Assembly: GCA_963726335.1 (NCBI GenBank)
Contig: CAVSCD010000011.1
Coordinates: forward strand, 787,449 to 851,448
Source: Candidatus Aminicenantes bacterium
Lineage (GTDB): Bacteria > Acidobacteriota > Aminicenantia > Aminicenantales > UBA8522
DNA: 64,000 nucleotides
Direction: 5' to 3'
Below, one piece after another: positions 17,519 through 45,305 of the stretch. The first letter of the stretch is position 1, and each line of letters opens with the position of its first letter. Both the position numbers and the translations under genes were made by a program. The notes under the pieces were generated by a model. That model worked only from the letters and a program-made list of their open reading frames with translations. It was not told where the DNA came from and did no database searches.

Positions 17519-17592
17519 CGCGCCTGGAGGGACTCGAACCCCCGACCCGCTGCTTAGAAGGCAGCTGCTCTGTCCACCTGAGCTACAGGCGC
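17519..17592 (-). tRNA. tRNA-Arg (anticodon TCT)
   Basis: Minus-strand cloverleaf GCGCCTG...CAGGCGC-G; anticodon stem GCTGC/GCAGC with loop CTTCTAA; T-loop GGTTCGAGTCC. Confidence 0.85.
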
Positions 17593-17622
17593 GTGCATAG
17601 CCGGCCCGCCCGGGAGGAGTGA

Positions 17623-17697
17623 TCGGGGAGATCGGATTCGAACCGACGACCTCCTGCTCCCAAGGCAGGCGCGCTAACCAGGCTGCGCCACTCCCCG
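17623..17697 (-). tRNA. tRNA-Pro (anticodon TGG)
   Basis: Minus-strand cloverleaf CGGGGAG...CTCCCCG-A; anticodon stem CCTGC/GCAGG with loop CTTGGGA; T-loop GGTTCGAATCC. Confidence 0.85.
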
Positions 17698-18907: not shown

Positions 18908-18911
18908 GATT

Positions 18912-19205
18912 TTAATCCGTTGGTCGATATGTCACCGCGTCGATGATGCCGCTGACGTAGGCGTCGACCGGCGCGCCGGCCGGAAGCCAGGGGTTCGAGG
19001 CTTCCCGCCCCTCCTCGAAGCAGACCGTCTGCCCGGTTCCCGCCCCCAGGTGATCGGCGGCGACGACCTCCCGGCCGCCGCCCCGCGAGTTCCCGGCCTT
19101 CAGGTTGTCCGCCGTCACCGGCTCGACGATCAGGTAGCGGGTGCCTTCCATGACGGCGAGTCCCCGGCTCAAGACCACGGTGCCCTTGACGATGCCCAGC
19201 CTCAT
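18912..19205 (-). CDS. BMC vertex protein (BMC-P, EutN/PduN/CcmL family)
   Basis: 97 aa, MRLGIVKGTVVLSRG... typical EutN/CcmL fold sequence. Confidence 0.85.
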   Translation of the reverse strand: MRLGIVKGTVVLSRGLAVMEGTRYLIVEPVTADNLKAGNSRGGGREVVAADHLGAGTGQTVCFEEGREASNPWLPAGAPVDAYVSGIIDAVTYRPTD

Positions 19206-19489
19206 CCGCGTTCTCCGGAGCCCGGTGGCGTCCGGCCGTCGACGATTCCCACGGCCGTCAGGCGCGCCGGCGCCGTCTTGTAGCCCGTGAGCGTTCGGAC
19301 GAGGTCGCCGTCCGTCGAGACCAGGACGAGGTCCCCCAGGCCGGCGCCGACGGCGTCGAGGACCACGATCGGCTCGCCGGTCCGCGAGCCGTCGGGCTCC
19401 GAGCGCCGGGCGACGAGGAGTTTTCGGCCCCGGAGGCTCTCGTGGCTGACCGTCGCCACCGCCGTGCCCTCGATTTTCGCCAGGTACAT
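19202..19489 (-). CDS. BMC vertex protein (BMC-P), second paralog
   Basis: 95 aa, MYLAKIEGTAVATVSHESLRGRKLLVA... EutN/PduN-like; 4-nt overlap with next gene. Confidence 0.85.
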   Translation of the reverse strand: MYLAKIEGTAVATVSHESLRGRKLLVARRSEPDGSRTGEPIVVLDAVGAGLGDLVLVSTDGDLVRTLTGYKTAPARLTAVGIVDGRTPPGSGERG

Positions 19490-19502
19490 GGATCTCTATT
19501 CC

Positions 19503-20960
19503 TCAGAAAAAGTCGTACCGGCCGCCGATCACCATCTGTCTCTGACGGGTGAAGGTCAGAGGCGTCGTCACGCCCTCGCCGGTGGCCGTGGCGATGCTGT
19601 AGCTTAGGTACCCGGGGCCGTCCACACCGAGCGCCGCGGTGCAGGGCGCGTTCCGGATGAACAGCGTGGTCCCCATCAGCCGGGCCATCCGCCGGGCCGT
19701 TTCATCATTCCGGGTATGGATGAGGGCCGAATGCCGGTAACCGTGTTCCGCCCTCAGGGCGGCCGCGATCGCGGCGTCGACGTCTCTCACCCGGACGACC
19801 GGCAGGAACGGCATCATTTGTTCCTCCCGGACGAAGACATGATCCTCGCCGGTCTCCCCGAACAGGAGGTCGACGTTATCTCCAACCGTCAAGCCCGCCG
19901 CCCGGCCCAGAAAAGCGGGGCTCCGGCCGATGTATTCGCGGTTCACGTGGAGCTCGCCGGACTTCTTGTCGGGCAGGAACGCGGCCTCGGTCAGTCGCCC
20001 GATCTGGCGCTGGTCAAGCTCGACCGCGCCCGCCCGGCGCATGGCCGCCATGAACTCCTCCGCGACGGCCTCGACGACGAAGACTTCTTTGTCGCCGATG
20101 CACAGGAGGTTGTTGTCGAAGGCCGCGCCGAAAATGATATGCTTGACGGCCGAGGGGAGGTCGGCGGTCTCGTCGACGACGACGGGGGGATTGCCCGGCG
20201 CCGCCGCGATGACCCGCTTGCCCGCCCGCATCGCCACCCTGACCACCTCCGGTCCGCCCGTGATGGTCAGGAGGGCGACGCCGGGATGTCGGAAAAGCTC
20301 GCCGGCCGCCTCGATCGAAGGCTTGGCCATGACCGTGATCAAGTTCTCCAGGCCGGTCTTGGCCTTGATGCGCCGGTTGATCTGCTGCAGCGCGTAGGTC
20401 AGGCAGCGGGCGGCCGCGGGGTGCGGTGAAAAGACGGCCGTGTTGCCCGCGGCGATGATGTTGATGGCGTTTCCGGCCATGGTCGGGATGCTGTGCGTCG
20501 CCGGCGTGACCATCCCGATGACGCCGAAAGGCGCGGCGGCGATGAATTCCGTTCCGGCGTCCCCGACCCGGACGCTCGTCCGCAGGGCCTCGACCCCGAC
20601 CACCCTGGACAGGATGGTCAGCTTCTGGATCTTGTGGTCCTCCCGGCCGAGGCGGGTCTCCTGAAATTCCAGGCGGGCCAGCTCCGCGGCGTTCTCCACG
20701 CAATAACCCTTGATGATGTCGACGATGACGCCCCGCTGCTCGAGCGACAGGGCGGCGAGCTTCGGCTGGGCCCTGCCCGCGGCGGCCACGGCGTCGTCGA
20801 CCGCGGGGAACACTCCGTCCGCACCCGTCCGCAGGTCCCGGTCTAACCCCGGGATTTCCCTCGGGCCGCCCGCGTCCGCCTCGGCGGTCAACCGGCGCAC
20901 GACCTCGGCAACGACGGCCGTGATATCGAGGTCACGATAGGGAGGTGAAGAACTCGTCAT
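19503..20960 (-). CDS. CoA-acylating aldehyde dehydrogenase (PduP/EutE-like) with N-terminal encapsulation peptide
   Basis: 485 aa; EutE/PduP-type ALDH core with catalytic Cys in NNLLCIGDKE; N-terminal amphipathic DITAVVAEVVRRLTAEA followed by G/P/D-rich linker. Confidence 0.9.
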   Translation of the reverse strand: MTSSSPPYRDLDITAVVAEVVRRLTAEADAGGPREIPGLDRDLRTGADGVFPAVDDAVAAAGRAQPKLAALSLEQRGVIVDIIKGYCVENAAELARLEFQETRLGREDHKIQKLTILSRVVGVEALRTSVRVGDAGTEFIAAAPFGVIGMVTPATHSIPTMAGNAINIIAAGNTAVFSPHPAAARCLTYALQQINRRIKAKTGLENLITVMAKPSIEAAGELFRHPGVALLTITGGPEVVRVAMRAGKRVIAAAPGNPPVVVDETADLPSAVKHIIFGAAFDNNLLCIGDKEVFVVEAVAEEFMAAMRRAGAVELDQRQIGRLTEAAFLPDKKSGELHVNREYIGRSPAFLGRAAGLTVGDNVDLLFGETGEDHVFVREEQMMPFLPVVRVRDVDAAIAAALRAEHGYRHSALIHTRNDETARRMARLMGTTLFIRNAPCTAALGVDGPGYLSYSIATATGEGVTTPLTFTRQRQMVIGGRYDFF

Positions 20961-20984
20961 ATCAGAACGCGCTCCATTCCCCGG

Positions 20985-21281
20985 CTAGGGTTTTTTCAGG
21001 GCTTTGCCGTTGACCTCGACCGAATCGACGATCCCGATGATCACGGCGTCGACGGGGCTGTCCTTGGTGCACTCGGTCATCCGGGCGGAGCTCCCCTGGG
21101 TGAACATGACGAGATCGCCGATGCCGCAGTTCACGCAGTCGACCGCCACGATGCTGCTGCCCTGCGGGACAAGCGTTTTCTCCTGGCTGACCTGGGGCTG
21201 AATGAGGAGGAGCTTCATCCCCAGGAATTTCGGATGCTTCTGCGAGGCGACCACCGTCCCCAAGACTTTGGCTAAGAACAT
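20985..21281 (-). CDS. BMC vertex protein (BMC-P), third paralog
   Basis: 98 aa MFLAKVLGTVVASQKHPKFLGMKLLLIQP..., EutN/PduN family. Confidence 0.8.
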   Translation of the reverse strand: MFLAKVLGTVVASQKHPKFLGMKLLLIQPQVSQEKTLVPQGSSIVAVDCVNCGIGDLVMFTQGSSARMTECTKDSPVDAVIIGIVDSVEVNGKALKKP

Positions 21282-21303
21282 GGCACCCTTCCTGTCGGTC
21301 CGC

Positions 21304-21579
21304 TCACCGCTTCGGGAGCATGCTCTGGATCTCGTCGTGCGGCCGCGACAGGACCTGCGAGCTGACGACCTGGCCCATCTCCCGGGCGACGGCCACGCCC
21401 GCGTCCAGCGCGGACCTCACGGCGGCCACGTCGCCCTGGATGTAACAGGAGCACAGGCCGCTGCCGATCTTCTTCCAGCCGATAAATTCCACGGCCGCCG
21501 ACTTGAGCATCGCGTCGGCCGCCACGACGAGGGCGGTCAGGCCTTTCGTCTCGATCATTCCGATCGCCGGTTTTGCCAT
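21304..21579 (-). CDS. BMC shell hexamer protein (BMC-H, PduA/EutM-like)
   Basis: 91 aa; MAKPAIGMIETKGLTALVVAADAMLKSAAVEF... canonical PF00936 sequence. Confidence 0.9.
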   Translation of the reverse strand: MAKPAIGMIETKGLTALVVAADAMLKSAAVEFIGWKKIGSGLCSCYIQGDVAAVRSALDAGVAVAREMGQVVSSQVLSRPHDEIQSMLPKR

Positions 21580-21597
21580 GGTTGCGACTCCTTTATG

Positions 21598-22770
21598 TCA
21601 GGACGCCGGGCGTCCCGCCGGTTTCTGCGAATTGATTTCATTTAAGAGTTCCGCCGCGGCCCGGGCCACGACGATCTCCTCGTTGGTGGCGACGGTCCAG
21701 ACCTCGGTTGCCGAGCCGTCGGCGGATATCCTCGACTCACCGGCCGCCGAGAGATTGCGCCGGCCGTCGATGCGGATGCCCAGGGGCTCGAGCCCCCGCA
21801 GGACCTCGGCCCTGACCCAGGGCGAGTGCTCGCCGATGCCGCCCGAAAAAGTGATCACGTCGAGCGTGCCGAGCTCGAGAAGGAAGGCTCCCAGGTGGCG
21901 CCGCACGGCGTAGACATAGGCATCGAGGGCGAGGCGGGCCCGCGGATCTCCCCGGCCCGCCGCGGCCTCGAGGTCGCGCACGTCGCCGCTCGTTCCCGAA
22001 AGCCCCGCCAGTCCAGATTCCGTGGACAACAGGCGGGCCATCTCGTCGGGGCCGAGCGCGTGTTTCTTCATCATGAAGAGCACGGCGAAGACGTCGATAT
22101 CGCCGACGCGATTATTCTGGGGAATTCCGCTCTGGGGCGTCATGCCGAAGCTCGTGTCGACGGCCCGGCCGTTCCTGACGGCGGCGAGGCTCGAGCTGCC
22201 GCCCAGATGGCAGGAGATTTGGTTGATTTCCTCCCGGCCGAGCAGTCGCCGCGCCCGTTCGCTCGCGTAGCGATGGCTGGCGCCGTGAAAGCCGAAGCGG
22301 CGGATGCCCTCCGCCTCGCGCCAGGACCAGGGCACCGCGTAGACGCAGGCCGCCTCGGGCAGGCCGGTAAAGAACGCCGTCTCGAACAGGGCCACCGCGG
22401 GGACCAGGGGCGCAACGGCCGCGAAGGCCCTCATGGCCGCGACATAAGGCGGATTGTGAGCGGGCACCAGGAACGCATACTCTTCCATGGCCTCCAAGAC
22501 CTCCGGGGTGACGAGGACGGCGCCGGTCAGCCCGCGGGCGTGCACGGCCTTGAACCCGACCGCGGCGAGCTCGTCCAGCGAGGCCAGGGGTTTTCCCGCG
22601 CCGATGAGCGAAGCCAGGCAGCGGTTGATGGCCGCCGGGAAATCGGGGCAGTCGCCCCCCTCCCGGCCGATCCGCTCGAACCGGCCTTCGGCGAGCACGC
22701 GCTCGTCGCCCGTATCGATCAGCCGATACTTGAACGACGTGCTGCCGATATTCGGCACGAGAATCTTCAT
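21598..22770 (-). CDS. ackA: Acetate/propionate kinase
   Basis: MKILVPNIGSTSFKYRL start, HLGGSSS and GIGEHS motifs of acetokinase family. Confidence 0.9.
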   Translation of the reverse strand: MKILVPNIGSTSFKYRLIDTGDERVLAEGRFERIGREGGDCPDFPAAINRCLASLIGAGKPLASLDELAAVGFKAVHARGLTGAVLVTPEVLEAMEEYAFLVPAHNPPYVAAMRAFAAVAPLVPAVALFETAFFTGLPEAACVYAVPWSWREAEGIRRFGFHGASHRYASERARRLLGREEINQISCHLGGSSSLAAVRNGRAVDTSFGMTPQSGIPQNNRVGDIDVFAVLFMMKKHALGPDEMARLLSTESGLAGLSGTSGDVRDLEAAAGRGDPRARLALDAYVYAVRRHLGAFLLELGTLDVITFSGGIGEHSPWVRAEVLRGLEPLGIRIDGRRNLSAAGESRISADGSATEVWTVATNEEIVVARAAAELLNEINSQKPAGRPAS

Positions 22771-22783
22771 GACGGACGCCGCC

Positions 22784-23065
22784 TCAGGCCTTCCTCTCCA
22801 CGAGTCCCAAGATGGAGTCGTGGGGCTGCGGGATGACGTGCGCCGCGATCACCTCGGCGCCGGCCGCCTTGAGGGTCGCGAGCCCGGCCTCGATCGCCGC
22901 CTTGACATTGCCCACCTCGCCCTTGACGACGGTCGTGACATAACCGCCGCCGATCTCCACGGTCCTGATCAGGGTCACGTTGGCGGCCTTGCACATGGCG
23001 TCGCCGGCCGTGATCAATCCGACCATTCCCCGGATCTCCAACATGCCGATGGCTTGATTACTCAT
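22784..23065 (-). CDS. BMC shell hexamer protein (BMC-H)
   Basis: 93 aa; AIGMLEIRGMVGLITAGDAMCKAANV... PF00936. Confidence 0.9.
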   Translation of the reverse strand: MSNQAIGMLEIRGMVGLITAGDAMCKAANVTLIRTVEIGGGYVTTVVKGEVGNVKAAIEAGLATLKAAGAEVIAAHVIPQPHDSILGLVERKA

Positions 23066-23113
23066 TCCGGTCCTCTCTTTTTTCGTTCGCCGTTCCGTGA
23101 CCGCCGTCCGGCC

Positions 23114-23401
23114 TCAGGCCTTCTGGGGCTTGGGTTTCCCCGTGAAAGACTCGAGATCCTCGTACGGGTTCGGGATCACCTGAGCCGCGACGACCTTGCC
23201 GAGTTTTGTCGCGGCCTCGGCGCCGGCGTCGACCGCGGCCTTGACGGCGGCGACTTCGCCCTCGAAAAAGGCCGTTACCATGCCCGAGCCGGCCGGCTCC
23301 CAGCGGATGAAGTCCACGGCGGCCGTCTTGCAGGCCGTGTCGGCGGCCTCGAGCATCGGCACAAAGCCGATCGTCTCGATCATGCCCAGCGCTTTTTTCA
23401 T
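23114..23401 (-). CDS. BMC shell hexamer protein (BMC-H) with short C-terminal tail
   Basis: 95 aa; ALGMIETIGFVPMLEAADTACKTAAVDF... PF00936. Confidence 0.9.
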   Translation of the reverse strand: MKKALGMIETIGFVPMLEAADTACKTAAVDFIRWEPAGSGMVTAFFEGEVAAVKAAVDAGAEAATKLGKVVAAQVIPNPYEDLESFTGKPKPQKA

Positions 23402-24135
23402 GCACGCACTCCTTTGTTGAAGATATCGCTGACGACGTTGAGTTTCCCTTTGGCGGGCCTCAGCGAGACCCGGCTGGCCGAGGCGAGATGACAGGCGTTG
23501 GCCTCGTCCGTGTCCAGATGGACCTCCAGCTTATAGCTCGGGTCGACGCGGACATGCACCCGCCCGAAGATGACGGGCGCGTCGCCCTCGACCACGAGCT
23601 CCATGATGTCCTTGTCGGCGACCCCGAACCGGGCCGCGTCGCGGTCGCTCATGTGGGCGTGAATGGCCGCCCGGATCACCCCTTGCTTGAGCTCCAGCAT
23701 CCCGGCCGGTCCCATGAGCCAGGCCCCGGGCGTGCCCTCGATATCGCCCGACATCCGGACGGGCACCTTTTCGATGCCGAGAAGCACGACATCGGTGTAG
23801 GCCAGCTCCACTTGCGAATACTCCCTGAGAGGGCCCAGAATGCGCAGCCCTGTGATCAACCGGCTCTTCGGGCCGATGATCGTCAAGGACTCCGACGCCG
23901 CGAAATGGCCCTCCTGGTAGAGCGGCCGCAGGGACGTCAGCTTGGCGCCCGTCCCGAACAGTGTTTCGAAATCCCTTGGGCACAGGTGAGCGTGGCGCGC
24001 CGAGACGTGAACCTTGAGCGGCGAGGCCACCCCGTCGGGGCGGACGGCGTCCCTACCCTTCCCGAATTCGCCCAGGACCTCGCGGACGACCCTCTCGACG
24101 GCGGCCCGGTCCAATGTCATGGCCATCGTCATCAC
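23398..24135 (-). CDS. pduL: PduL-type phosphotransacylase with N-terminal encapsulation peptide
   Basis: Two PduL repeats with metal-binding His motifs (HVSARHAHL; RAAIHAHMS; HVRVD); N-terminal amphipathic DRAAVERVVREVLGEF. Confidence 0.9.
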   Translation of the reverse strand: MMTMAMTLDRAAVERVVREVLGEFGKGRDAVRPDGVASPLKVHVSARHAHLCPRDFETLFGTGAKLTSLRPLYQEGHFAASESLTIIGPKSRLITGLRILGPLREYSQVELAYTDVVLLGIEKVPVRMSGDIEGTPGAWLMGPAGMLELKQGVIRAAIHAHMSDRDAARFGVADKDIMELVVEGDAPVIFGRVHVRVDPSYKLEVHLDTDEANACHLASASRVSLRPAKGKLNVVSDIFNKGVRA

Positions 24136-24138
24136 TCC

Positions 24139-24699
24139 TTATACGTACTCCCGGAGCAGCTCGGCCGACGGAGCCGAGATCAGGGCGCTCGCCACGAGCA
24201 TTCCCGACTCGGCCATGGCCGCCGCCGCCGCGTCCAGGCCGGCCCGGACCTCTCCCAGCCCGCCGCAGAAAAGCACCAGGCCTTTCCCGCCCATGGCCAT
24301 GGCCAGGTGGATGCGGAGAAGCTTGACCTCGGCGTTCTTGACGGCCTCGTCGGCGGCCTCCACGGCGCTGGCCGCCGAGAAGGTCTCGACCGCGCCGAGC
24401 GCTCCCGGCAACTCGTTGCCGAGCTCAACCGACAGGCTCAGGGCGGGCAAGACGTCGGGATGGAGGTTGCTGATGATCCGGTTCTCGATGATCGTGCCCG
24501 CGCCCGCCCGGGTGGCGGCTTCGAGCGAAGCTTTGACCGCGGATACGGAGCCGGCGACGACGATCAGGAACTTGCCCGAGCAGACCGGCCGGGCGATCAA
24601 GATGCTCACGGGCGCCGTTTTCAGGAGCGCGTCCTCGACCTGGTAGCCGAGGGCGATCGAGCTGAGCTCGAGAATTCCGATGTTGTTGATCTCGTCCAT
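24139..24699 (-). CDS. Tandem-domain BMC shell protein (BMC-T, PduT-like)
   Basis: 186 aa with two consecutive BMC (PF00936-like) domains. Confidence 0.8.
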   Translation of the reverse strand: MDEINNIGILELSSIALGYQVEDALLKTAPVSILIARPVCSGKFLIVVAGSVSAVKASLEAATRAGAGTIIENRIISNLHPDVLPALSLSVELGNELPGALGAVETFSAASAVEAADEAVKNAEVKLLRIHLAMAMGGKGLVLFCGGLGEVRAGLDAAAAAMAESGMLVASALISAPSAELLREYV

Positions 24700-24709
24700 G
24701 TTCCTTAGC

Positions 24710-26002
24710 TCATTCGGCTTCGATCACGACCGCGTCCGCGACCGACAGGACCCTGCCGTCGATGCTGGCGTGGACGGGAGCGCCGAGTTTTCCTTTCGGG
24801 ATTTCACCCAGACAATCCCCCTCTTTGACGCGCTGTCCGACCCGGGCCGTCGGCTCGGCCGCCACGCCCGCGTGCTGGCGAAGCGGAATGCGGACGCACC
24901 GCGGGCTCACCCGGACGTCACGCAACGGAGCCTGATCCAGGAGGTTCGCCAGGCCGAGCTTGCGCACGAGCCGAGACATGGGCAGGAGGCGGCCGAACCG
25001 CAGGGGATGCGGCCTGGGGGGCGGCGTGACGGATCGAGGAGGCCCGCTTCCCGCCGATTTCTTTTTGACGATGGCGCAGATCTCGGCGGGATCGAGGTCC
25101 TCGGGGCAGGCGGCCAGGCTGCAGAGGCGGCAGCCGGAGCAATATTCGGCGTAGAGCGCCGCTCCGTCGTCGGGCAGTCCCAGCCCGAAGCTGCGCATGA
25201 CGCGGTGCGGCTCGACCGGATGATTCAACAGGTAGCGGGGGCACAGCTCGGTGCAGAAAGAGCATTGGTCGCAGGCGGCCCGGGCGATCCGCCGGACCGC
25301 CTCCGGGCGTCGGGCATACCGGCGGATGAGACCGTGATCCCCGGGGAGAACGACCAACCCGGCGGTCGTCTTGGTCACGGGCTCGGAAAGATCGCCGGCG
25401 AGCCGGCCCATCATGACGCCGCCGACGAGGACGCCGAAGTCGGGGAGGACGGCGCCGCCGGCGGCCGCGATGACATCGGCGAACGGCGTGCCGACAGGGA
25501 CCTCGAGCGTCCGCGGCCTGGCGACCAGCCCGGCCACGGTCAGGAACTTGCGGGTGACCGGCCGGTCGAGCCCGATATTGACCAGCGTCTCCACGTTGAG
25601 GACGACGGCGCCGACGTCTTTGGGCAGGCCGCCCGGGCCGATGATCCGTCCCGTGACCTCATAGACCAGGACAAACTCATCGCCCGCGGGATAGACATCG
25701 TCAAGGGGCTGAACCGAGACTGCGGCCGGGCAGCGTCCGGCGAGGCCGGCGATGAGATCGCCGTGCTTTTTCTTGATCCCGATGATCCCGCGGCGGGCCG
25801 AGACGCGCTTCATGGCCGCGGCCAGCCCGGCGAAGAATTCATCGGGGCGGTGGGCCAGCAACTCCTGGTCCTTATGGATGAGGGGCTCGCATTCGGCGGC
25901 ATTGACGATGAGCGTATCGACGGTCGCGGCGAGCTTGACCGAGGAGGGGAACCCGCCGCCCCCGCAGCCGACCACGCCGTGCTCGAAGATGACGTCGATC
26001 AT
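24710..26002 (-). CDS. PduS/RnfC-like Fe-S flavoprotein
   Basis: Start set at MIDVIFEH; GCGGGGFPSSVKL nucleotide-binding loop; two 4Fe-4S motifs CDQCSFCTELCP and CSGCRLCSLAACP; C-terminal barrel-sandwich-like domain. Confidence 0.75.
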   Translation of the reverse strand: MIDVIFEHGVVGCGGGGFPSSVKLAATVDTLIVNAAECEPLIHKDQELLAHRPDEFFAGLAAAMKRVSARRGIIGIKKKHGDLIAGLAGRCPAAVSVQPLDDVYPAGDEFVLVYEVTGRIIGPGGLPKDVGAVVLNVETLVNIGLDRPVTRKFLTVAGLVARPRTLEVPVGTPFADVIAAAGGAVLPDFGVLVGGVMMGRLAGDLSEPVTKTTAGLVVLPGDHGLIRRYARRPEAVRRIARAACDQCSFCTELCPRYLLNHPVEPHRVMRSFGLGLPDDGAALYAEYCSGCRLCSLAACPEDLDPAEICAIVKKKSAGSGPPRSVTPPPRPHPLRFGRLLPMSRLVRKLGLANLLDQAPLRDVRVSPRCVRIPLRQHAGVAAEPTARVGQRVKEGDCLGEIPKGKLGAPVHASIDGRVLSVADAVVIEAE

Positions 26003-26288
26003 GTGTAGATAAAATAGATGGTATGGACGATTTTTACAAGTCCCCCATGAAAGCCGGGGCCGGAGCTGACGGCGAGCCGCCGGCGGTCGCCCCCCATAAC
26101 CCCTTTGGGTGAGAGGGCAGGGGGCAATATCACCTTCAGAATCCTCGGGGGGGGTGATTGACCCTCCCATATGCCGAGGGCATCATGGGGCCGTCCTGAA
26201 AGAGAACCGTAGGCGTAGAGGAGATTTTCGGGTTCGATGCGAGAATTCGTGACACAATGCGGCGTCTATTTTACAGGAAGGGTCAATG

Positions 26289-30436: not shown

Positions 30437-31730
30437 ATGAAGACCCGGAAGAGCCACGTCCTCTGGTTTATCCTGATCCGCCTGATCGCGGTCACCTCGA
30501 TCCTCGTCGCGGTCGTGATCATCCAGCACTCGACGACGGATTTCATCCCGCTCATCCCGTTCTATTTTCTCGTCGCTGCTGACGTACATCCTGTCGGTCG
30601 TCTATCTCGGGCTCTACCGTCTCGGGGAACGCTATGACCTCCAGGCCGTTCTCCAGACGGGGATCGACCTGCTGCTCATCACCGCCCTCGTCTATATCTC
30701 CGGCGGGCTGTCGGGCTCGCTCTACCTGCTGTACATCGTCTCGATCGTCGCCGCCAGCATCGTCCTGTCCAACCGCGCGGCCTACCTGACGGCCGGCGTT
30801 TCGGCCGTCCTGTTCGGGCTGCTCGTGGACGGCCTGCATTTCGGCGTCATTCCCTATTTCAGCGCCACGCAGTACAGCGAGCAATCCTTGGGCTTGATCA
30901 TCTTCACGATGTTCCTGGCCTGGGGCCTCTTTTTCCTGATGGCGGCCCTGGCCAACTATCTTACGGGCGGCCTCAGAAAAGCCCGGGAAGAGCTGCGCCT
31001 GGCCGAGAAAGAGCTCGAGATCAGCGACCGGCTGGCGAACGCCGGCCTGATCTCGGCCCAGCTGGCGCACGAGATCCGGAATCCCCTGGCCGCGATCTCG
31101 GGTTCGGTCCAGGTCCTGAAGGGCGATATCGCCCTCGACGACGACCAGCGGAAGCTCATGGACATCGTCGTCCGGGAATCCGCGCGCGTCTCCCAGTCGA
31201 TCGAGCAGTTCCTGGACCTGGCCTCGCCGGGCCGGCCGGACTTCAACTGGCTGAACCTGTCCGAGGTGGTGGACGAGACGCTCGAGGTGCTCAGGGCGGC
31301 CGGCGATCTCAACGGGCGGTACCGGGTCGACGGGAATTTCCGGGAGGTCCGGGTCGGGTACTACGGGAACGCCGGGCAGTTCAAGCAGCTCTTCTGGAAC
31401 CTGGCCAAGAACGGGCTCAAGGCCATGCCGGACGGCGGGACGCTCACCGTCGATCTATCGCTGGACAGGAAGAAGTCCGTCGGGATCCGGGTCGCCGACA
31501 CGGGCACGGGCATGACGGCGGAAGAGCGCGGGCACCTCTTCGAGCCGTTCTTCACCCGCTTCCAGAACGGCCGCGGCCTCGGCCTGGTCGTCGTCCGCCG
31601 CATCGTCGACGACTACGACGGGAGGATCGAGGTCCGGTCGGAGGCGGGGAGGGGCACGGAGTTCCTGTTGTCTTTCCCGCCCCGCGAGGCCAGGCCGAAG
31701 GCGGCGGCCAATCCTATCTCCGCCAACTAG
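30437..31730 (+). pseudogene. pilS: PilS-like membrane sensor histidine kinase, interrupted by a +1 frameshift
   Basis: ATG at 30437 opens a TM-rich N-terminus in frame 2; continues seamlessly in frame 3 from about 30565 (TTTT run) through HisKA (LAHEIRNPLAAISG) and HATPase_c (GTGMTAEERGHLFEPFF) to stop at 31730. Confidence 0.6.
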
Positions 31731-31739
31731 GGGCACACC

Positions 31740-33157
31740 ATGGACAGCATCCTGATCGTCGACGACGAAAAGAGTCTGCTCGAGCTCCTCACGGTGGTCC
31801 TGAAGAAGGAAGGCTACAGGGTCAAGACCTGCCTGGCGGCCTCCCGGGCGTTCGAGGTTCTGGAGAAGGAAGAATTCGACCTGCTGATCTGCGATATCAA
31901 GCTGCCCGAGGTGAGCGGGATGGAGGTCCTGCGGTACGTGCGGGAAAACCGTCCGGAGATGCCCGTCATCATGATCACGGCCTACGGCAGCCTCAAGCAG
32001 GCGGTGGAAGCCCTGAAGGCCGGCGCCATCGATTATATCCTCAAGCCCTTTGACGTCGAAGAGCTCAAGATCATCGTCGCCAAGGAGCTCGAGAAGCGGC
32101 GGCTCAAGGAGGAGAACATCCTGCTCAAGCGCAACCTGCGCGAGAAGTACTCCTTCGAGAACATGATCGGCAAGAGCCAGGCCATGCAGGAGGTCTATAC
32201 CCTGATCGAGAAGTCCTCGGGGACGGATTCGACGGTGCTGGTCACCGGTGAGAGCGGGACGGGCAAGGAGATGGCGGCCCGGGCCCTACATCTCCTGAGC
32301 CGCCGGTCGGACAGCCCGTTCGTCTCGATCAACTGCGCCGCGCTTCCCGAGAACCTGCTCGAGAGCGAGCTCTTCGGCCACGCCCGGGGGGCGTTCACGG
32401 GCGCGGTCGCCGAAAAGAAGGGCATGTTCGAGGTCGCCCAACGGGGGACGCTCTTCCTGGACGAGGTCGGCGAGACCTCGCCCTGGACCCAGGTCAAGCT
32501 GCTGCGGGCGATCCAGGAGAGGAAGATCCGGCGGGTCGGGGGGACGGACGAGATCCCCGTCGATGTGCGGATCATCGCCGCCACCAACCATGACCTCAAG
32601 AAGAGGATCGAAGAGGGCAAGTTCCGGGAGGATCTGTTTTACCGGCTGAACGTCATCGCCTTCGAGATGCCGCCGCTGCAGAAAGCGGACCGAGGATATC
32701 CCGCTGCTGGTCAATCACTTCATGCAGAAGTACTGCCAGGGCATGGGGAAGAGGATGAAGCGGGTGGCGCCCGAAGTGATCGGCTATTTCGAGCTCTACG
32801 GTTGGCCGGGAAATGTGCGGGAGCTTGAGAATGTCATCGAGCGCGTCGTGGCCATCGAGGACCGGGAGACCGTCACCGCGGCCAGCCTGCCCCACGAGAT
32901 CACGACGCCGCCCAGAAGGGAGGCGGCGCGGCCGTCGATCCCGCCGGGGTTCAACCTGATGTCCCACATCGACGATGTCTCCAAGAGCTATATCCATGAG
33001 GCGAGGCAGCTGGCGGGCGGGCAACCTCAGGAAAACGGCCGGCATCCTCGGCGTCAGCTATCGCTCCCTGAGGCATCTCATCGACAAGTTCGGGCTCAGG
33101 GAAGCCGAGAGAGTGGAAAGGGTCGACGCCAGGGCTGAGTCGAAACCCCTGACCTAA
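31740..33157 (+). pseudogene. pilR: PilR-like sigma-54-dependent response regulator (REC-AAA+-HTH), interrupted by two +1 frameshifts
   Basis: REC domain (LIVDDEKSLL...DLLICDIKLPEVSG), AAA+ sigma-54 interaction domain (GESGTGKE, GAFTGA, FREDLFYRLNV) in frame 0; continues in frame 1 from about 32683 (FMQKYCQ...GNVRELENVIER) and in frame 2 from about 33015 (Fis-type HTH). Confidence 0.6.
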
Positions 33158-33269: not shown

Positions 33270-33285
33270 TGGCACGGAAATTGCT
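33270..33285 (+). promoter_or_regulatory. Sigma-54 (-24/-12) promoter upstream of pilin gene
   Basis: cTGGCACGgaaaTTGCTa matches the RpoN consensus TGGCAC-N5-TTGC exactly; about 75 nt upstream of pilin ATG, with SD AAGGAGGA at 33345-33352. Confidence 0.6.
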
Positions 33286-33359: not shown

Positions 33360-33896
33360 ATGCTTAAGAAGATGAGAGGTTTCACACTGATCGAGCTGCT
33401 CATCGTCGTCGCCATCATCGGCATTCTGGCAGCCCTGCTGATCCCGAACGCCCTGTCGGCCATCCAGAAGGCCAAGCAGAAAGGCACGATGAAGGACATC
33501 AACTCGATCGCCACGGCCATCACGGATTTCGTGACGGACAAGGGGACGGCTCCGGTTCAGTCCGGTGACCTCGTCGGCGGCAGCCAAATTTACACGGACC
33601 TGAGCGGGTTCTACCTCAAGGTTCTCCCGCAGAACGATCAGTGGGGCTCGCCCTTCAAGGTCTGGTGCGGTTCAGCAGCCGACGGCTCGTACTCCGGAAT
33701 CACGAACAACGCCGCTGATGACTTTGTCGTCGCCTCTATCGGAAGGGACAAAAGCCAGACCGCGATCGCCTTCAACCCCCTGGCTCCCACCACCGCTTAT
33801 TTCGACATCACCGGCATGACCAGCTTCAACCAGGACCTCGTGAATTGGGACGGCTCCTGGGTTCATGCCCCCAAGAGCGCTCAGCTCGGAACCTGA
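33360..33896 (+). CDS. Type IV pilin / GspG-like pseudopilin (prepilin with class III signal peptide)
   Basis: MLKKMRG|FTLIELLIVVAIIGILAA prepilin cleavage/N-methylation motif; GspG-like motif KVLPQNDQWGSPFKVW. Confidence 0.85.
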   Translation: MLKKMRGFTLIELLIVVAIIGILAALLIPNALSAIQKAKQKGTMKDINSIATAITDFVTDKGTAPVQSGDLVGGSQIYTDLSGFYLKVLPQNDQWGSPFKVWCGSAADGSYSGITNNAADDFVVASIGRDKSQTAIAFNPLAPTTAYFDITGMTSFNQDLVNWDGSWVHAPKSAQLGT

Positions 33897-33923
33897 TTAG
33901 AGCAAGAGAGCAAGCCTCGAACA

Positions 33924-33958
33924 GGGCGGCTGGTCGAAGGGCCGGCCGCCCTCTTTTT
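33924..33958 (+). terminator. Rho-independent terminator after first pilin gene
   Basis: GGGCGGC...GCCGCCC stem followed by TCTTTTT. Confidence 0.5.
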
Positions 33959-33997
33959 ACCCTGAGAGATCGAATCCTCGATGAATCGGGAGTTGCC

Positions 33998-34546
33998 ATG
34001 ACCAGCACGAGACGCGGTTTTACATTGATCGAAATCTTGGTTGTTATTGTGATCCTCGGCATCCTCGCCGCCCTCCTTATTCCTCTGGCCATGGGCTCTA
34101 TTCAGAAGGCCAAGCAAAAAGGCACGCTGAGGGACATCAATTCCATCGCCGTCGCGCTCACGGATTTCGTCACCGATCACGGATCCGCGCCCTTCGGCGT
34201 CAGCGGACCGATCGTGGCCGGCAGCCCCCTGTACACAGCCGTCAGCGGATTCTACCTCAAGGTCCTGCCTCCGAACGACCAGTGGGGAACGCCGTTCAAT
34301 GTGTGGTGCGGGACGGCTGCCGATTCCTCCGGCTATGCCAACGTTACGGGGAATGGCATCGACGATTTTGTGATCTCTTCGTGGGGCCGCAACAAGAGTG
34401 TCGATGCGGTCGCCTTCAACCCGATGCAACCGACAACGGCTTACTTTGAGATCACCGGATTGGCCAGTTTCGACGAAGACCTCATCAGTTGGAACGGCTC
34501 CTGGATCCATGTCCCGAAGAGCGCTCAGCTCGGAGATTCGACCTGA
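33998..34546 (+). CDS. Type IV pilin / GspG-like pseudopilin, paralog of the preceding gene
   Basis: MTSTRRG|FTLIEILVVIVILGILAA; the two pilins share long identical blocks (KAKQKGT, SGFYLKVLP, NDQWG, WNGSW, PKSAQLG) with the same architecture. Confidence 0.85.
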   Translation: MTSTRRGFTLIEILVVIVILGILAALLIPLAMGSIQKAKQKGTLRDINSIAVALTDFVTDHGSAPFGVSGPIVAGSPLYTAVSGFYLKVLPPNDQWGTPFNVWCGTAADSSGYANVTGNGIDDFVISSWGRNKSVDAVAFNPMQPTTAYFEITGLASFDEDLISWNGSWIHVPKSAQLGDST

Positions 34547-34619
34547 TCTTTCCGCTTTGCATCCCGGCACCAGCGACGCTATAATGGGCAGCCGGTGAAC
34601 CCAGGCGGCGGTATGATCC

Positions 34620-36398
34620 ATGATCACAACTCCATCGCCACCGCCTCTTGAGCTTGAGGCGGCCTCAAATCCACATACGACCCGGGAACGTCGGGCGATC
34701 TATCTGCTGCTTCTTGTCGCGGTCAACCTCGCGCTTTTTCTGCCGTCGATGAGCGGCGATTTCCTATGGGACGACAAGTACTTCATCAGCGAAAATCCAT
34801 ACATCCAGGGGGGCGGGTTCCTGCGGAGCTTTCTTTTCAGCCCGTTCGGCGGGTTCTCCGGTACGGACGAAAACAGCGTGCGGCAGGACAGGAACATGCT
34901 GTTTTACCGTCCTCTTGTCTCCCTCTCCTACTGGCTGGACTTCAGGGCTTGGGGGCTGAACCCGGCGGCGTTTCACCTCACGAACATCCTGATCCACGCC
35001 ATCAATGTGATGGCGTTCTTTTTTATCCTGATCGCCCTGTCCCTCAGCCCACGCTCGGCTTTCCTCGGGGCGTTTCTTTTTTCCGTTTATCCTCTTCACT
35101 TCGAGAACGTGTCCTGGATCTCGGGGCGAACCGACCTGCTGGCGTTTCTTTTCGCCGCATTATCGATCCTCTTTTTCATCAGGCACCTTAAGACGCCGTC
35201 CCGACTCAACCTTCCGGTTTCGGGCGCAGCCTATTTCCTGGGGCTCCTCTGCAAGGAGAACGTGGTCCTTTTGCCCCTGGTGTTCCTCTTCTTCCTTTAT
35301 AAAAAGGAAGGGAAAGGCGGCCCGCCCGCCCACCTCCTCTTCCGCCTCTGGCCTTATGCCCTGGCTTTGCTGAGCTGGTTCATGCTCAGGTGGAACGCCC
35401 TGGGCTCCGCTTCGATCGGATATTCCGGAAGAGGGGCCCACGATTTCCTGGCGGCTATTGGGTTCTACAGTTGGAGGATGATCTTCCCCTTCCGGCTGAG
35501 CCTGACCGTCGATTCCCCACCGGTCATGGAGAGCCCGGTTTTCGGGGTCTTGGGGGCAGTCCTCGTGGCGGGCTTCGCCCTGTCTCTCTGGCAAGCGAGG
35601 CGGAGGAGCCTGTCGCGAGGCTGGCCTTTCTGGTCGTTTTTAGGCTATGGCCTGTTTCTTCTGCCGTCCGTCTTGGTCATCTTCTCTGCGTCGGCCCTCT
35701 CACTTATGGCCTGGCGGTTTCTGTATCTTCCATCGGCGGTATTGATCGGTGCGCTCGTCTATCTTCTGGCGGACCGCTTCAAACTCAAAGCGTTGGGCGC
35801 AGGAGTGATCGTACTTCTGGCCGCCCTCTATGCGGCCGAGATCTATCCGAAAAACGCCCTCTTCGGCCAAGAAGAGACCCGCTTCTGGCTCAGCATCAAG
35901 AGTCCGGATCATGAGGATGTCATCGCCCGGTTCAATATCGCGGTCAAGGCGTTGCCTACGGACGAGAAAGAGGCGCTGCGGCTGTTTGATTCTATCCTGA
36001 GCCAGACAGGACGCCCCTCATATCGGTACTGGAAGACCTCGATTTTTGAAGAGCTTGGCGTATATTATGCTTTTCGAAAGGATTTCTCCAAGGCGGAGCG
36101 CTATTTCCATGAGCTTTTCGGCATGGAGCCCCGGCCATCGCTGCGGCTCCGCTTCAACTACGCATATTATTTCGCCTTTGCGGGAAAAAGGGACGAGGGC
36201 GAAAAAATCGTCCTGGAGACGCTGCGCGAGTTCCCGCAGAGCCATTTCGCTTTGACCCAGGCCGCGAAATTTTATGTGATCGTCCGGGATTACGGGAAAG
36301 CGGCAGACCTCTATGCCGTTGACTTCAGGCTTTTCCGAACCCGACAGTCCCGGCTGCTGGCTGAAGAAGCAGGCCGTTTCCGGCAGGGCATCCGCTAG
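34620..36398 (+). CDS. GT-C fold membrane glycosyltransferase of TMTC/PMT-like type with C-terminal TPR repeats
   Basis: 592 aa; about 11 TM segments; loop-1 acidic motif FLWDDKYF after TM1 as in PMT/ArnT/TMTC enzymes; C-terminal TPR-like region. Confidence 0.55.
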   Translation: MITTPSPPPLELEAASNPHTTRERRAIYLLLLVAVNLALFLPSMSGDFLWDDKYFISENPYIQGGGFLRSFLFSPFGGFSGTDENSVRQDRNMLFYRPLVSLSYWLDFRAWGLNPAAFHLTNILIHAINVMAFFFILIALSLSPRSAFLGAFLFSVYPLHFENVSWISGRTDLLAFLFAALSILFFIRHLKTPSRLNLPVSGAAYFLGLLCKENVVLLPLVFLFFLYKKEGKGGPPAHLLFRLWPYALALLSWFMLRWNALGSASIGYSGRGAHDFLAAIGFYSWRMIFPFRLSLTVDSPPVMESPVFGVLGAVLVAGFALSLWQARRRSLSRGWPFWSFLGYGLFLLPSVLVIFSASALSLMAWRFLYLPSAVLIGALVYLLADRFKLKALGAGVIVLLAALYAAEIYPKNALFGQEETRFWLSIKSPDHEDVIARFNIAVKALPTDEKEALRLFDSILSQTGRPSYRYWKTSIFEELGVYYAFRKDFSKAERYFHELFGMEPRPSLRLRFNYAYYFAFAGKRDEGEKIVLETLREFPQSHFALTQAAKFYVIVRDYGKAADLYAVDFRLFRTRQSRLLAEEAGRFRQGIR

Positions 36399-36406
36399 CC
36401 GCCCTT

Positions 36407-38461
36407 CTATTGCCAGACGGGCTTCAGCTGATCGAGGTATTGGGTCTTGACCCGGTTCGTGAGATATATGATCTCGGGTTGGGACGGCTTGAGGCCCAGC
36501 GAGCGGCCGAAATAGTCCAGGGCGGGCTTGGCCCTGAGCAGGTTGCTCAGGTAAAAGTAGCCGATTTTGTTCAGGACCTCCGGTTCACGGGCGTGAGCCT
36601 GGGCAACGCCGGCGATGATTTTCTCCCCCTCTTCGGGCAGGCCCCGGTAATAATCGAGCCTGGCCACGAGAAGCTGGTGATCGACGTCCAGGCTGGGGAG
36701 CGTTTGGATAAGGGCTAAGGCGGCGTCGAAGTTCCGGTACTGAATGTAGAAGCTCATCTTCTTCTCGAACGGCAGCTTCTCAAACTCCGCACGGGCTAAG
36801 GCCGTATCGGTCCTGGCAAAATACGCCGGATAGACCGCCTTCATCGTCATCTCCAGTGCGGCCGCCTTATCCCAGAGTTCACGACTCAGGTACAGGTCAT
36901 AGAGCCGGCTGTAGGATTCCTTGACCGTGCTAAAGCGGGCGAGGTTGTCCTGGAGCGAAACCTCAGCGGCCTGAATCTCTCCTCGGGATGTCTGGATTTC
37001 CGCCTTCTTCTCGTTGATCTGATAGCGGATGAAGGGCGCGATTTTGACCTTCGGATCGTTCTCGAATTCCTCGATGCTGTTGAGCCAGCGGAAGGCGCTC
37101 GGGTAATCCGCCCGGGCGATCTCGATATCGGTGTAGAGCGAGCTCACCAGGATGGCCGTCTCCCTTTTCATGTCCAGGGACAGGGTGCGGTTCAGGGAGA
37201 GCTCGGCCGAGAGATAATCCTTGTTTTCGAAGGCCGCCTTCCCCGATTGGAAGAGGACATACGCGTCCCGGGGCCAGGACTGGCGCGCCCTCTCCCAGAA
37301 AAGCGTTTTGTTTTTATAAGCGCCTCCGTTTAAGACAATGGCGGGGATGAACAGGACGAGGAGAAGGAAGGTGACCACGAACCGCGGCCTCTCCCGGATT
37401 CCCTTGAGCGCAGCCGCCAGGAGCCAGACGAGCGCGAGCCCGGAAACCAGCATGTAGCGGGCGTATATTTGGTAGGGGAAGATATTGGTGAAGACCAGCA
37501 GGACATGAGCTCCCGTAAAAACCGCCAAGAGAACGGTGGGAATCAGGTATCTTTTGGCCTTGGTTGAGCGAAGGAGCAGGAAAACCAGGAGCAGTCCCGC
37601 GGCGATCCCGAATCCTACATAGAAAGCCTTCATGGCCTCCTGGACCGATGCAAACTCGTCGTACCGCAGCGGGAAAACCATGGTCCTGAAGTAATAGCCC
37701 AGCGTCCCGATCGTGGCCTTGATATCCTCGCCGATGTCGGCGCGCAGGACGAACTTGATGCTCTTGAGGTCGAGGACAAAGATTTTCAGAAAGAAGAAGA
37801 CGCCCAGCAGGCCGAGGTTGGCCAGGTGGTAGAGCGGGGAGATCCTCCTTCGCTTGAGCGCCTCATAAAGGATGAGAACCGGGAAGAAAAAAAGGAACGT
37901 CTCCTTGGAGAGAATTCCCAGGAAAAAGCTCGCGGCTGAAAGCCAGAGATAGAATGTCCGGTGTTTCTTAAGGGAGAGGTCGAGAAAGAGAAAACAGAGC
38001 ATCGCCCAAAGAAACATCAGCAGGTCGCCCCGCCCGACCACCCAGACGATGTTGTCCATGTTCAGGGGGTAGAGCGCGAAGAGCAGCGTGACGATCTCGG
38101 GGAAATAGGGATACTCGGACTGCTTCTTCAGGAAACAAAAAAGGAAAATCAGCCCAAAGAGGTAGATCAACAGATTCGTCAGGCGCAGGGTGACATTCTG
38201 GATCCCCCAGAGTTTGTTTTCCAAAAGAAACGACGCCGTGAGCAGGGGACGATAATAGTGGTCCTGTCCCTGGACGCCGAGCTGCTCGCTGAAATAGCCG
38301 AATTTGAAGGCCGAGCTGATCGGATGATTCTCAATAAAGAGGACGTTGTGCTTGAAATACATCTCATCATCCCAGATCAGATCATAGTTGAACGTCTTCC
38401 AGTAGATTCCGAAGAGGATAACGACCAGAGCGAACAGGAAAACCAGGTCTTTCTTCAGCAT
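36407..38461 (-). CDS. GT-C fold membrane glycosyltransferase of TMTC/PMT-like type with C-terminal TPR repeats (paralog, convergent)
   Basis: 684 aa; N-terminal TM1 then LIWDDEMYF loop motif, about 11 TM segments, long C-terminal TPR region. Confidence 0.55.
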   Translation of the reverse strand: MLKKDLVFLFALVVILFGIYWKTFNYDLIWDDEMYFKHNVLFIENHPISSAFKFGYFSEQLGVQGQDHYYRPLLTASFLLENKLWGIQNVTLRLTNLLIYLFGLIFLFCFLKKQSEYPYFPEIVTLLFALYPLNMDNIVWVVGRGDLLMFLWAMLCFLFLDLSLKKHRTFYLWLSAASFFLGILSKETFLFFFPVLILYEALKRRRISPLYHLANLGLLGVFFFLKIFVLDLKSIKFVLRADIGEDIKATIGTLGYYFRTMVFPLRYDEFASVQEAMKAFYVGFGIAAGLLLVFLLLRSTKAKRYLIPTVLLAVFTGAHVLLVFTNIFPYQIYARYMLVSGLALVWLLAAALKGIRERPRFVVTFLLLVLFIPAIVLNGGAYKNKTLFWERARQSWPRDAYVLFQSGKAAFENKDYLSAELSLNRTLSLDMKRETAILVSSLYTDIEIARADYPSAFRWLNSIEEFENDPKVKIAPFIRYQINEKKAEIQTSRGEIQAAEVSLQDNLARFSTVKESYSRLYDLYLSRELWDKAAALEMTMKAVYPAYFARTDTALARAEFEKLPFEKKMSFYIQYRNFDAALALIQTLPSLDVDHQLLVARLDYYRGLPEEGEKIIAGVAQAHAREPEVLNKIGYFYLSNLLRAKPALDYFGRSLGLKPSQPEIIYLTNRVKTQYLDQLKPVWQ

Positions 38462-43096: not shown

Positions 43097-43473
43097 ATCC
43101 TCCTGTGCATCAGCCCCGGACAGAGCGGGGCGAGGCCCGCGGATGGGCGGCCGCGTTCAACCTGAATTTAGGAGAATATTAGCTTTAAGGACTGGTCAAG
43201 TCAAGGCTTCCGCCGTCGTCGGAAGCCGCCTTTCATGAACGGGCCGATTTCTCTCCGGTGAGAACCAGGGAGGCCTTTTGAGGGGGTCATGGTCAGCGCG
43301 GCTTCTCACCCCCGGCGATGAGAAGGTTTAGCAAAACTCACCCCGGCGTTCATCGAGCCCGACGATTGACCGGCGGCCGGGAATGAATGACAATACGGCT
43401 GAAATGGAGAGCCCGCGTTTCAGTGAACGCTGTAAAATGGCCGGCCCCGAGGGATCGACACAAGGAGTCAGGG

Positions 43474-44465
43474 ATGGGGAATAAGACCTTGCTGTCAGTC
43501 GTCGTGCCCATCTGCTCCGAAGAGGAGATCATCCCTGAATTCTATGCGCGGCTGAAGTCCGTGCTCTCGGGACTGAGCCAGGCTCTCGATCATGAGATCA
43601 TCTTCGTCGATGACGGGAGCCGTGACGGATCCATGGACCTCCTCAAGCGCCTAGCGCAAGACGACAAGGATATCCGGGTCATCAGCTTCTCAAGGAACTT
43701 CGGTCACCAGTTCGCCATCACCGCCGGCCTGGACCATGCCTCCGGCGACGCCGCTGTGATCATCGACGGCGACCTCCAGGACCCGCCCGAGGTCATCCCC
43801 CAAATGATCGGCAAATGGAGCGAAGGCTGCAAGGTCGTTTACGGGGTCAGGGAAAAAAGGCGGGGCGAAAACCCGGTCAAGCTCGTGACGGCCAAGCTGT
43901 TCTACAGGCTCATCAGGCTCCTGAGCGACACCGATCTGCCGCTCGACGCAGGGGATTTCAGGCTCCTGGATGCCAAGGTCATCGAGGCTCTTAAAAGATT
44001 CGGGAGGAAAACCGCTACATCAGGGGGCTCGTGAGCTGGGCGGGCTTCCGCCATTGCGGCCTGCCTTACCGGCGGGATCCCCGGTATGCCGGAAAGACGA
44101 AATATACCTTCAAAAAAATGGTCAAGTTCGCCGTCGACGGGATCCTGAGCTTTTCCGACCGCCCGCTCAAGATCACCGCTTATCTTGGGTTCCTGATCAC
44201 GATGGTCTCGTTCTTGGTCGGGCTGAGGATTGCCATCGGCAAGCTCCTCCATCCGGACATGCTCGTCTCCGGCTGGACCTCCATGATCCTGGCCGTGCTG
44301 TTTATCGGCGGCATCCAGCTCGTCTCGCTCGGCATCCTGGGCCTTTATGTCGGCCGCCAATACCGGGAAGTGAAGAGGCGGCCACTCTATATCATCGCCG
44401 AAAAGACGGGTTTTGACGTGGGCCGGCCGCCGGGCAGCCTGGGAGAAGGGCTTGACAGCCGATGA
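43474..44465 (+). pseudogene. GT2 polyprenyl-phosphate sugar synthase (GtrB/ArnC/DPM1-like), interrupted by a -1 frameshift
   Basis: ATG 43474 with SD AAGGAG; N-terminal GT2 domain (LSVVVPICSEEEI...FVDDGSRDGS...DGDLQDPPE) to stop at 44034; continues in another frame (EENRYIRGLVSWAGF..., two C-terminal TM helices) from about 44003 (GGG run). Confidence 0.6.
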
Positions 44466-45305
44466 CCGGATCCGAAGGCCCCCTGATTTCCGTCGGCATT
44501 CCCGCTTTTAATGGCGAGCGCTATATCGGCCGGGCCATCGAATCCGTCTTAGGCCAATCCCACGCCCATTTTGAGCTCGTCATCGTCGACGACCATTCCG
44601 AGCGACAATACGGCCGGCGTTATCAAGGGTTACCCCGACCCGAGGATCAGGGTCATGGAAAATCCGTCACGTTTGGGCCAGATGGGAAACTGGAACAAAA
44701 CCCTTCATGAAGCCAGGGGGACGTACATAAAGCTCCTCCCCCAGGACGACCTCCTCTATCCGACCTGCCTGGAAAGGCAGGTCGAAGCTTTCGCCAAGCC
44801 GGAGAACCAGGGCGTCGCTCTGGTCTGCTGTGCGCGCGACATCATCGACCACTCCGGGCGGGTCATCCTCAGGCGGTCTTTCCGGAGGAGGAAAGGCCGG
44901 CTGGCAGGAGTCAGGGCCGTAAAGGAGAGCATCCGGGCGGGGACTAACCTAATCGGTGAACCGGCCGGGGTCCTCTTCAGGTCCGCGGCCGTCGACAAGG
45001 TCGGCCTCTTTGACGACCGGAATTTCTATGTCATCGACCTGGATTATTGGTGCCGGGCGCTTCTGACCGGCGACCTCTACATCATACCCGAACCGCTGTG
45101 CGCCTTCCGGGTGTCCGGAGGCTCCGCGAGCCTCAGGGTCGCGTCCTCGCAGGACAAGGATTTTCGAAACTTCATCAGGTTCCTGGCCCGGGACGAGCGC
45201 TTTCACCTCACGGGCGTGGATGGCTTCCGGGGCAAGATCAAGGCCTTCGCCAATCGACGGCTCCGGCAGCTCTTCTACAAGATGATCGTGAAGGAAGCGC
45301 GATGA
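44462..45305 (+). pseudogene. GT2 family glycosyltransferase, interrupted by a +1 frameshift
   Basis: ISVGIPAFNGERYIGRAIESVLGQSHAHFELVIVDDHS in frame 2, continuing DNTAGVIKGYPDPRIRVMENPSRLGQMGNWNK... in frame 0 from about 44600. Confidence 0.55.

Follow-up and report, generated by a model that had tools for sequence, protein, structure and literature searches.

The region analysed here (the window, by which we mean the whole stretch of 64 kb) belongs to a contig of 1,239,703 bp that derives from an uncultured lineage and is deposited in NCBI and ENA. It carries a type IV pilus locus with the gene order pilB-pilT-pilC-pilS-pilR-pilin, in which the reading frame changes by +1 once within pilS and twice within pilR (Table 1). 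At each of the three breaks, translation of the next frame carries on the normal sequence of PilS or PilR.

Table 1. Features of the pilS-pilR region, strain alleles at the three inserted bases, and further interrupted genes of the window. GT2, glycosyltransferase family 2.
Feature	Position	Strand	Context or remark	Codon in other strains	Codon in window
pilS, whole gene	30437-31730	+	frame 2 for approximately 46 codons, then frame 0		
pilS codons 1-46 (start, 6-TM PilS membrane domain)	30437-30574	+	frame 2 (position modulo 3 = 2)		
Extra G breaking pilS (site 1, Val)	30575	+	CTCGTC[G]CTGCTG	GTC in L001, L085; GTG in L084	GTC+G
pilS remainder (rest of 6-TM domain, HisKA, HATPase_c)	30576-31730	+	frame 0		
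pilR, whole gene	31740-33157	+	frames 0, 1 and 2 in succession		
pilR part 1 (receiver and sigma-54 AAA+ domain, codons 1-312)	31740-32677	+			
Extra G breaking pilR, first break (site 2, Leu)	32678	+	CCGCT[G]CAGAAAG	CTC in L001; CTG in L086, L087	CT+G+C
pilR part 2 (AAA+ lid domain and linker, codons 313-425)	32679-33017	+			
Extra C breaking pilR, second break (site 3, Gly)	33018	+	GGCGGG[C]GGGCAAC	GGG in three close strains, L001, L086, L087	GG+C+G
pilR part 3 (C-terminal Fis-type helix-turn-helix)	33019-33157	+	AGGNLRKTAGILGVSYRSLRHLIDKFGL		
Sigma-54 type promoter, predicted (TGGCAC-N5-TTGCT)	33270-33285	+	TGGCACGGAAATTGCT; 75 nt upstream of pilin gene		
Type IV pilin gene (N_methyl motif), intact	33360-33896	+			
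PgfS/ArnC-like GT2 gene (43387-44465), -1 at A-run	43993-43996	+	NCBIfam NF047588 split 3-168 / 170-304, two frames		
TuaG/WcaA-like GT2 gene (44462-45305), extra G	44600	+	TCC[G]AGC; profile split 4-42 / 47-133		
Iron-complex ABC ATPase gene, +1, extra base	63063-63065	-	ATC-A-T-TG GAC; Pfam ABC_tran split 2-80 / 83-136, two frames		

The extra bases were placed by alignment of the window with a closely related locus (L001, on ENA contig ERZ25039513 contig_12298) and with close strains. The original prediction had described single-base +1 breaks, one in pilS and two in pilR, across which the protein carries on seamlessly in the next frame; the alignment confirmed the former, and translation at all three sites confirmed the latter. 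Its finer placements required correction: the pilS insertion lies 7 nt downstream of the TTTT tract (30565-30568) near which it had been located, the first pilR insertion lies 4 nt upstream of the proposed AAA tract (32682-32684), and the pilS break follows codon 46, within the 6-TM domain, rather than lying at the junction between the TM domain and HisKA. The 46 codons before this break encode the same residues as the start of the intact PilS (430 aa) in L001. An attribution of all three breaks to homopolymer or repeat tracts could not be maintained for TTTT and AAA, whose lengths are as in the relatives; only C33018 lies within a run, where it splits a run of six G present in the relatives (GCG GGG GGC in L001, L086 and L087) and is thus not a change of run length. 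At each site, the inserted base is unlike the base on either side and, since none of the three copies a neighbour, the insertions are not of the slippage type.

Once G30575, G32678 and C33018 were removed, pilS and pilR formed open reading frames of 1293 and 1416 nt that contain no stop other than the terminal one and encode a PilS of 430 aa and a PilR of 471 aa, respectively. The repaired PilS showed Pfam matches to 6TM_PilS (5-184), HisKA (206-264) and HATPase_c (312-416), and the domains that characterize a PilS sensor kinase were complete only once G30575 had been removed. The repaired PilR matched Response_reg (4-112), Sigma54_activat (142-307) and AAA_lid_14 (314-394), and both a GAFTGA loop and a helix-turn-helix motif were readable in it, which identifies it as a PilR/NtrC-type sigma-54 activator. 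No Pfam helix-turn-helix match was obtained in this protein at E ≤ 0.001; the assignment of that element was based on the sequence motif and on identity to named PilR proteins (P0004-P0006). The pattern of the sigma-54 promoter had a single, perfect match in the window, against 0.02 expected by chance, and its predicted position before the pilin gene is that expected of the target of PilR. All of pilB, pilT, pilC, both pilins and this promoter are perfectly preserved in the window. The repaired locus matches the PilS-PilR sigma-54 control of pilin described for Pseudomonas aeruginosa, Myxococcus and Geobacter in its domains, gene order and TGGCAC-N5-TTGC promoter. The three extra bases are the only notable difference from the known PilS-PilR systems, the host here being an uncultured member of Aminicenantes (Acidobacteriota). 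Its pilBTC-pilSR-pilin cluster is of an ordinary kind.

The PilC protein of the window is also encoded on the 175-kb contig that carries L001, where pilS (430 aa) and pilR (471 aa) are both intact. Over window positions 19231-40432, L001 is 98.83% identical to the window; the alignment has 229 mismatches and 19 columns with gaps. In clusters formed at 90% identity, with other members from JGI, ENA and Logan assemblies, all of those other members were full length (six PilS at 430 aa and four PilR at 471 aa), and the only truncated ones were the 301-aa and 362-aa products of the window. In JGI sample 3300075153, a contig of 14 kb likewise carried the whole pil cluster intact. DNA from further strains was aligned with the window and L001, namely L084 (an ENA contig with a k141, MEGAHIT-style name) and L085 (a Logan contig) for pilS, and L086 and L087 for pilR; the JGI contigs were mostly short. 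In the comparison with orthologues that the original prediction had proposed as a check, ten other cluster members were intact, and L001 and L084-L087 were in frame at the sites that they cover.

The repaired genes of the window and those of their relatives gave dN/dS values of 0.06-0.26, and values among the intact strains were 0.09-0.24. The repaired PilR differs from the PilR of L001 by two amino acids, and the changes private to the window in pilR comprised six synonymous and one non-synonymous. Judged by these ratios, pilS and pilR are not under relaxed selection, in a test that would miss a very recent inactivation.

The window was further scanned for other breaks with codon scores and then with Pfam and NCBIfam on all plausible open reading frames. 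Three further frameshifts were detected, in two GT2 genes and one ABC ATPase gene (Table 1), while the other genes had full-length domain matches. The three interrupted genes are all intact in JGI sample 3300075153 (330, 280 and 264 aa for the PgfS/ArnC-like GT2, the TuaG/WcaA-like GT2 and the ABC ATPase, respectively). This sample was compared by the gene tables of three contigs, and the strain alleles for both GT2 positions are presumed. The extra G in the TuaG/WcaA-like gene adjoins a wobble C, and its repair gave a product of 280 aa, equal to that of the JGI gene. In the PgfS/ArnC-like gene, we infer which base of the A-run was lost; this break resembles a plain homopolymer deletion. With six frameshift sites in 64 kb, of which three lie within 2443 bp (P = 0.07), the clustering in pilS and pilR is not significant. 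The impression of a striking cluster among intact neighbours consequently stood in part: pilB, pilT, pilC and the pilins are indeed intact, but three more frameshifts lie elsewhere in the window.

Breaks of a similar kind were frequent in sister contigs. Over the 21 kb that it shares with the window, L001 is broken at 6-7 places where the window has intact open reading frames, and nearly all of these breaks consist of one G gained or lost outside runs. Together with L082, a second locus on the same contig (contig_12298), in which lpxK is split, the number of breaks at places intact in the window reached approximately 7-8. On another contig, L169 (ERZ25039459 contig_93192), leuS, fecCD and comEC are in pieces. 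The sister contig was read on either side of window positions 40.4-50.3 kb, and exact-protein look-ups for RNase PH and the GT2 at 49271-49957 returned no match. The contigs of ERZ25039513 and ERZ25039459 bear Flye-style names (contig_N) and close accession numbers. The long-read project of Microflora Danica was Nanopore-only and used Flye with one round of Medaka (PMC12313526); the window and its sister contigs would fit a project of this type, a possible link of the sister contigs to it being suggested by their naming. Frameshift errors that truncate proteins have been documented in long-read metagenome assemblies with IDEEL-type tests (PMC13087279, PMC9262707), and Nanopore-only metaFlye assemblies of soil contained many of them, with approximately 57% of proteins at full length in one soil data set (PMC13087279).

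With respect to strain variation, the window carries at sites 1 and 2 both alleles, in tandem, of a synonymous C/G wobble SNP that separates the other strains (Table 1). An enumeration of every possible 1-base insertion in pilS and pilR, with SNPs taken from just three other strains, showed that 3.4% of them would imitate a known SNP with its two alleles in tandem, so that the probability of observing this for at least two of the three insertions is 0.003. At site 3, the alternative allele GGC is absent from the three close strains and was found, among the matches listed, only in distant relatives (≤85% amino acid identity); the tandem-allele pattern at this site is therefore unverified, and this stands against reading it as a collapse of strains.

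Taken together, the frame breaks most probably represent a consensus artefact of a strain-mixed long-read assembly (probability of about 0.87, estimated from comparisons of sequence). As in known long-read frameshift errors, single-base indels split conserved genes, are scattered over the contig, are more numerous in sister contigs and are absent from other assemblies of the same species (L084, L085 and the JGI contigs). Similar breaks lie in genes of the window that are unrelated to pilS and pilR, namely the two GT2 genes and the ABC ATPase gene, and these are intact in an independent assembly (JGI), as is characteristic of a long-read artefact. The original prediction had listed sequencing or assembly error among its explanations, and the evidence favours that option, yet not in the homopolymer form that it had named: the insertions are not of the slippage type, and two of them lie at strain SNPs. 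The classical form of such errors is a wrong homopolymer length, whereas five of the six events in the window are insertions unlike their neighbours and, unlike in the classical form, at least two set the two alleles of a strain SNP side by side.

As for how the extra bases arose, a consensus built from collapsed strains that retains alleles in tandem is a reasonably probable cause of all three. Co-occurring strains of one uncultured Aminicenantes species would have been collapsed in a long-read metagenome assembly, probably of Nanopore reads with a Flye-type assembler. Where the reads of these strains differ by a synonymous C or G at a third codon position, the consensus may have kept both alleles consecutively, which would turn a substitution into a 1-base insertion and shift the frame. 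Under an error model in which deletions cost little, each read could be explained by a single deletion from a sequence that holds both bases. A consensus of two mixed haplotypes would thus have a reason to place alleles in tandem, whereas a mutation would have none to insert the alternative allele beside the resident one. We did not find an explicit account in the literature of a SNP being converted to tandem alleles by consensus failure. The organism itself would most likely possess an ordinary intact pilS-pilR pair, activating the sigma-54 promoter before the pilin gene.

The biological consequence of this reading is small, since the pil locus is ordinary, and its value lies in the caution that gene disruptions in long-read MAGs are not to be taken as pseudogenisation. 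A 1-base insertion beside a wobble position that presents both alleles of a SNP may serve as a signature by which such errors can be flagged and repaired without reads, and the same signature may mark spots where co-occurring strains were collapsed.

The artefact could also have a simpler origin, namely random indels that survived polishing at low coverage, with the match of two sites to SNPs being a coincidence. We consider this origin unlikely, though it is the strongest of the alternatives. Sister contigs of the same accession series contain many gene-breaking single-base indels, the GT2 break at 43993-43996 has the appearance of a homopolymer deletion, the third site has no matching allele in close strains, and soil Nanopore assemblies are rich in frameshift errors (PMC13087279); all of these would be accounted for by residual read error. 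It would, however, leave the tandem alleles of a known C/G SNP at two of the three insertions to chance (P = 0.003), and nearly all of the indels are a G or C adjoining a wobble position.

Genuine inactivation, in which the strain lost pilS through one frameshift and pilR through two, so that both are young pseudogenes, is improbable. The extra bases do stand in the deposited sequence, the loss of one partner of a two-component system frees the other to decay, and the ABC ATPase break recurs in two assemblies (the window and L082). Against these points, the dN/dS values are as in intact strains, with one private non-synonymous change in pilR, and three independent frameshifts without relaxed constraint would be unusual for real pseudogenes. 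Most spontaneous frameshifts arise by slippage within runs, and a bias towards deletions is typical of bacterial pseudogenes; here, each of the three events adds one base (+1) that matches neither neighbour, and two of them coincide with known SNPs of which both alleles are present. Moreover, the genes are intact in the other assemblies (n = 10), the same type of break occurs in other genes of the contig of the window and in sister contigs, and pilB, pilT, pilC, both pilins and the promoter have been retained without damage. The option of true inactivation, also raised by the original prediction, is accordingly disfavoured by the intact assemblies, by dN/dS and by the similar breaks in other genes. 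Its most specific form, a very recent knockout of pilS-pilR in one natural strain of an uncultured Aminicenantes population by three independent +1 insertions with the pilus machinery, pilins and promoter kept, appears slightly less probable still; if true, it would offer an environmental snapshot of how type IV pili are lost at the level of regulation.

Ribosomal +1 frameshifting, transcriptional slippage or phase variation that reads through or toggles the three sites has a negligible probability and was rejected because the shift is not conserved and the sites share no motif and contain no repeat, in agreement with the earlier view that programmed frameshifting is unlikely. The seamless continuation of the protein in the next frame at each site is what recoding would give, but all orthologues, including one at 98.8% identity, are in frame at these sites, and the contexts CTCGTCGCTG, CCGCTGCAGAAAG and GCGGGCGGGCAAC have no common motif. 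Neither an in-frame stop nor a rare codon was found at the three sites, and there was no run of at least seven identical bases and no tract of repeat units. As in +1 frameshifting of the prfB type, a change of frame is needed for the full protein; unlike in prfB, there is no conserved shift site and no in-frame stop, and three unrelated sites are involved. Phase-variable contingency genes similarly show frame-disrupting single-base changes in genes for surface structures, but they vary by slipped-strand mispairing, whereas here no repeat tract has changed in length and the inserted base differs from its neighbours.

The break in the ABC ATPase gene deserves separate mention, as the same frameshift is present in the window and in L082. 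At this site, L168 has the codon ATG and P0030 has Leu, against A-T-TG in the window. Such a reading would fit tandem alleles if the Leu codon were TTG, as presumed; alternatively, the break could be a simple duplication of T or a real mutation shared by two strains. Under a collapse of strains, its occurrence in L082 as well requires either that both samples contain the same pair of alleles or that the error is systematic, and a real mutation common to the window and L082 would be the simpler explanation for this break. Several other switches of frame indicated by the codon scores coincided with ordinary gene boundaries, namely those of tatA/tatC, deaminase/kinase, miaB-like/mutL, lpxK/lpxL/rph/epimerase and DUF362.

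The +1 insertion that breaks the gene for the iron-complex ABC transporter ATPase in the window is identical in L082, a locus on the sister contig ENA ERZ25039513 contig_12298, and the copy at L169, on a third long contig (ENA ERZ25039459 contig_93192), is truncated too. The copies in the independent JGI assemblies of related strains are unbroken (264 aa), and the majority of them lie on short contigs. The insertion common to the window and L082 is either a systematic error or a true mutation that both share.

Features located in the window
Feature	Position	Strand	Details
tRNA-Arg(TCT) adjoining tRNA-Pro(TGG)	17518-17697	-	Rfam/ARAGORN
Bacterial microcompartment locus	17789-26182	-
Sigma-54 promoter	33270-33285	+	TGGCACGGAAATTGCT, perfect match; 75 nt upstream of first pilin gene
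Tandem pair of pilin genes	33360-33896 and about 34001-34546		within 33360-38461
Two large membrane proteins after the tandem pilins	within 33360-38461	+ and -	592 aa, PMT_2-like (+); 684 aa (-)
Two neighbouring GT2 glycosyltransferase genes	43387-45305	+	one frameshift apiece
Iron-complex ABC transporter ATPase gene	62627-63497	-	+1 insertion at 63063-63065

Both the contig that carries L082 and a further locus, L001, and the contig of L169 contained numerous single-base indels that break genes, with an extra G outside runs predominating. Among the genes broken in these sister contigs were a BMC shell gene, an rnfC-like gene, lpxK, leuS, fecCD, and comEC, and these indels point to a consensus-quality problem general to the ERZ25039513 and ERZ25039459 assemblies. 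Regarding the two GT2 genes of the window, the first shifts frame by -1 at an A-run (43993-43996), and the second has a G inserted at 44600 (TCC[G]AGC); a JGI contig from a related strain carries unbroken counterparts of both (330 and 280 aa). In the window (50920-51725) and in L082 (18900-19720) alike, the RNase PH gene is unbroken. Its two copies differ by numerous close-set, frame-compensating indels and substitutions, to a far greater extent than the flanking genes do. The tract could be hypervariable or have undergone recombination, or the L082 consensus could be noisy at this place.

The sigma-54 promoter, which has no second match within the window, is the expected target of PilR, a sigma-54 activator. 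The two large membrane proteins that follow the pilin genes are possibly pilin glycosylation enzymes. Across the whole window, the only Rfam and ARAGORN matches were the two tRNA genes. The microcompartment locus encodes a class II aldolase, an aldehyde dehydrogenase, an acetate kinase, and a PTAC phosphotransacylase, together with EutN/CcmL pentamers, several BMC shell proteins, and an RnfC/Complex1_51K-like protein. The locus is similar to microcompartments of the sugar-phosphate (fucose/rhamnose) type.
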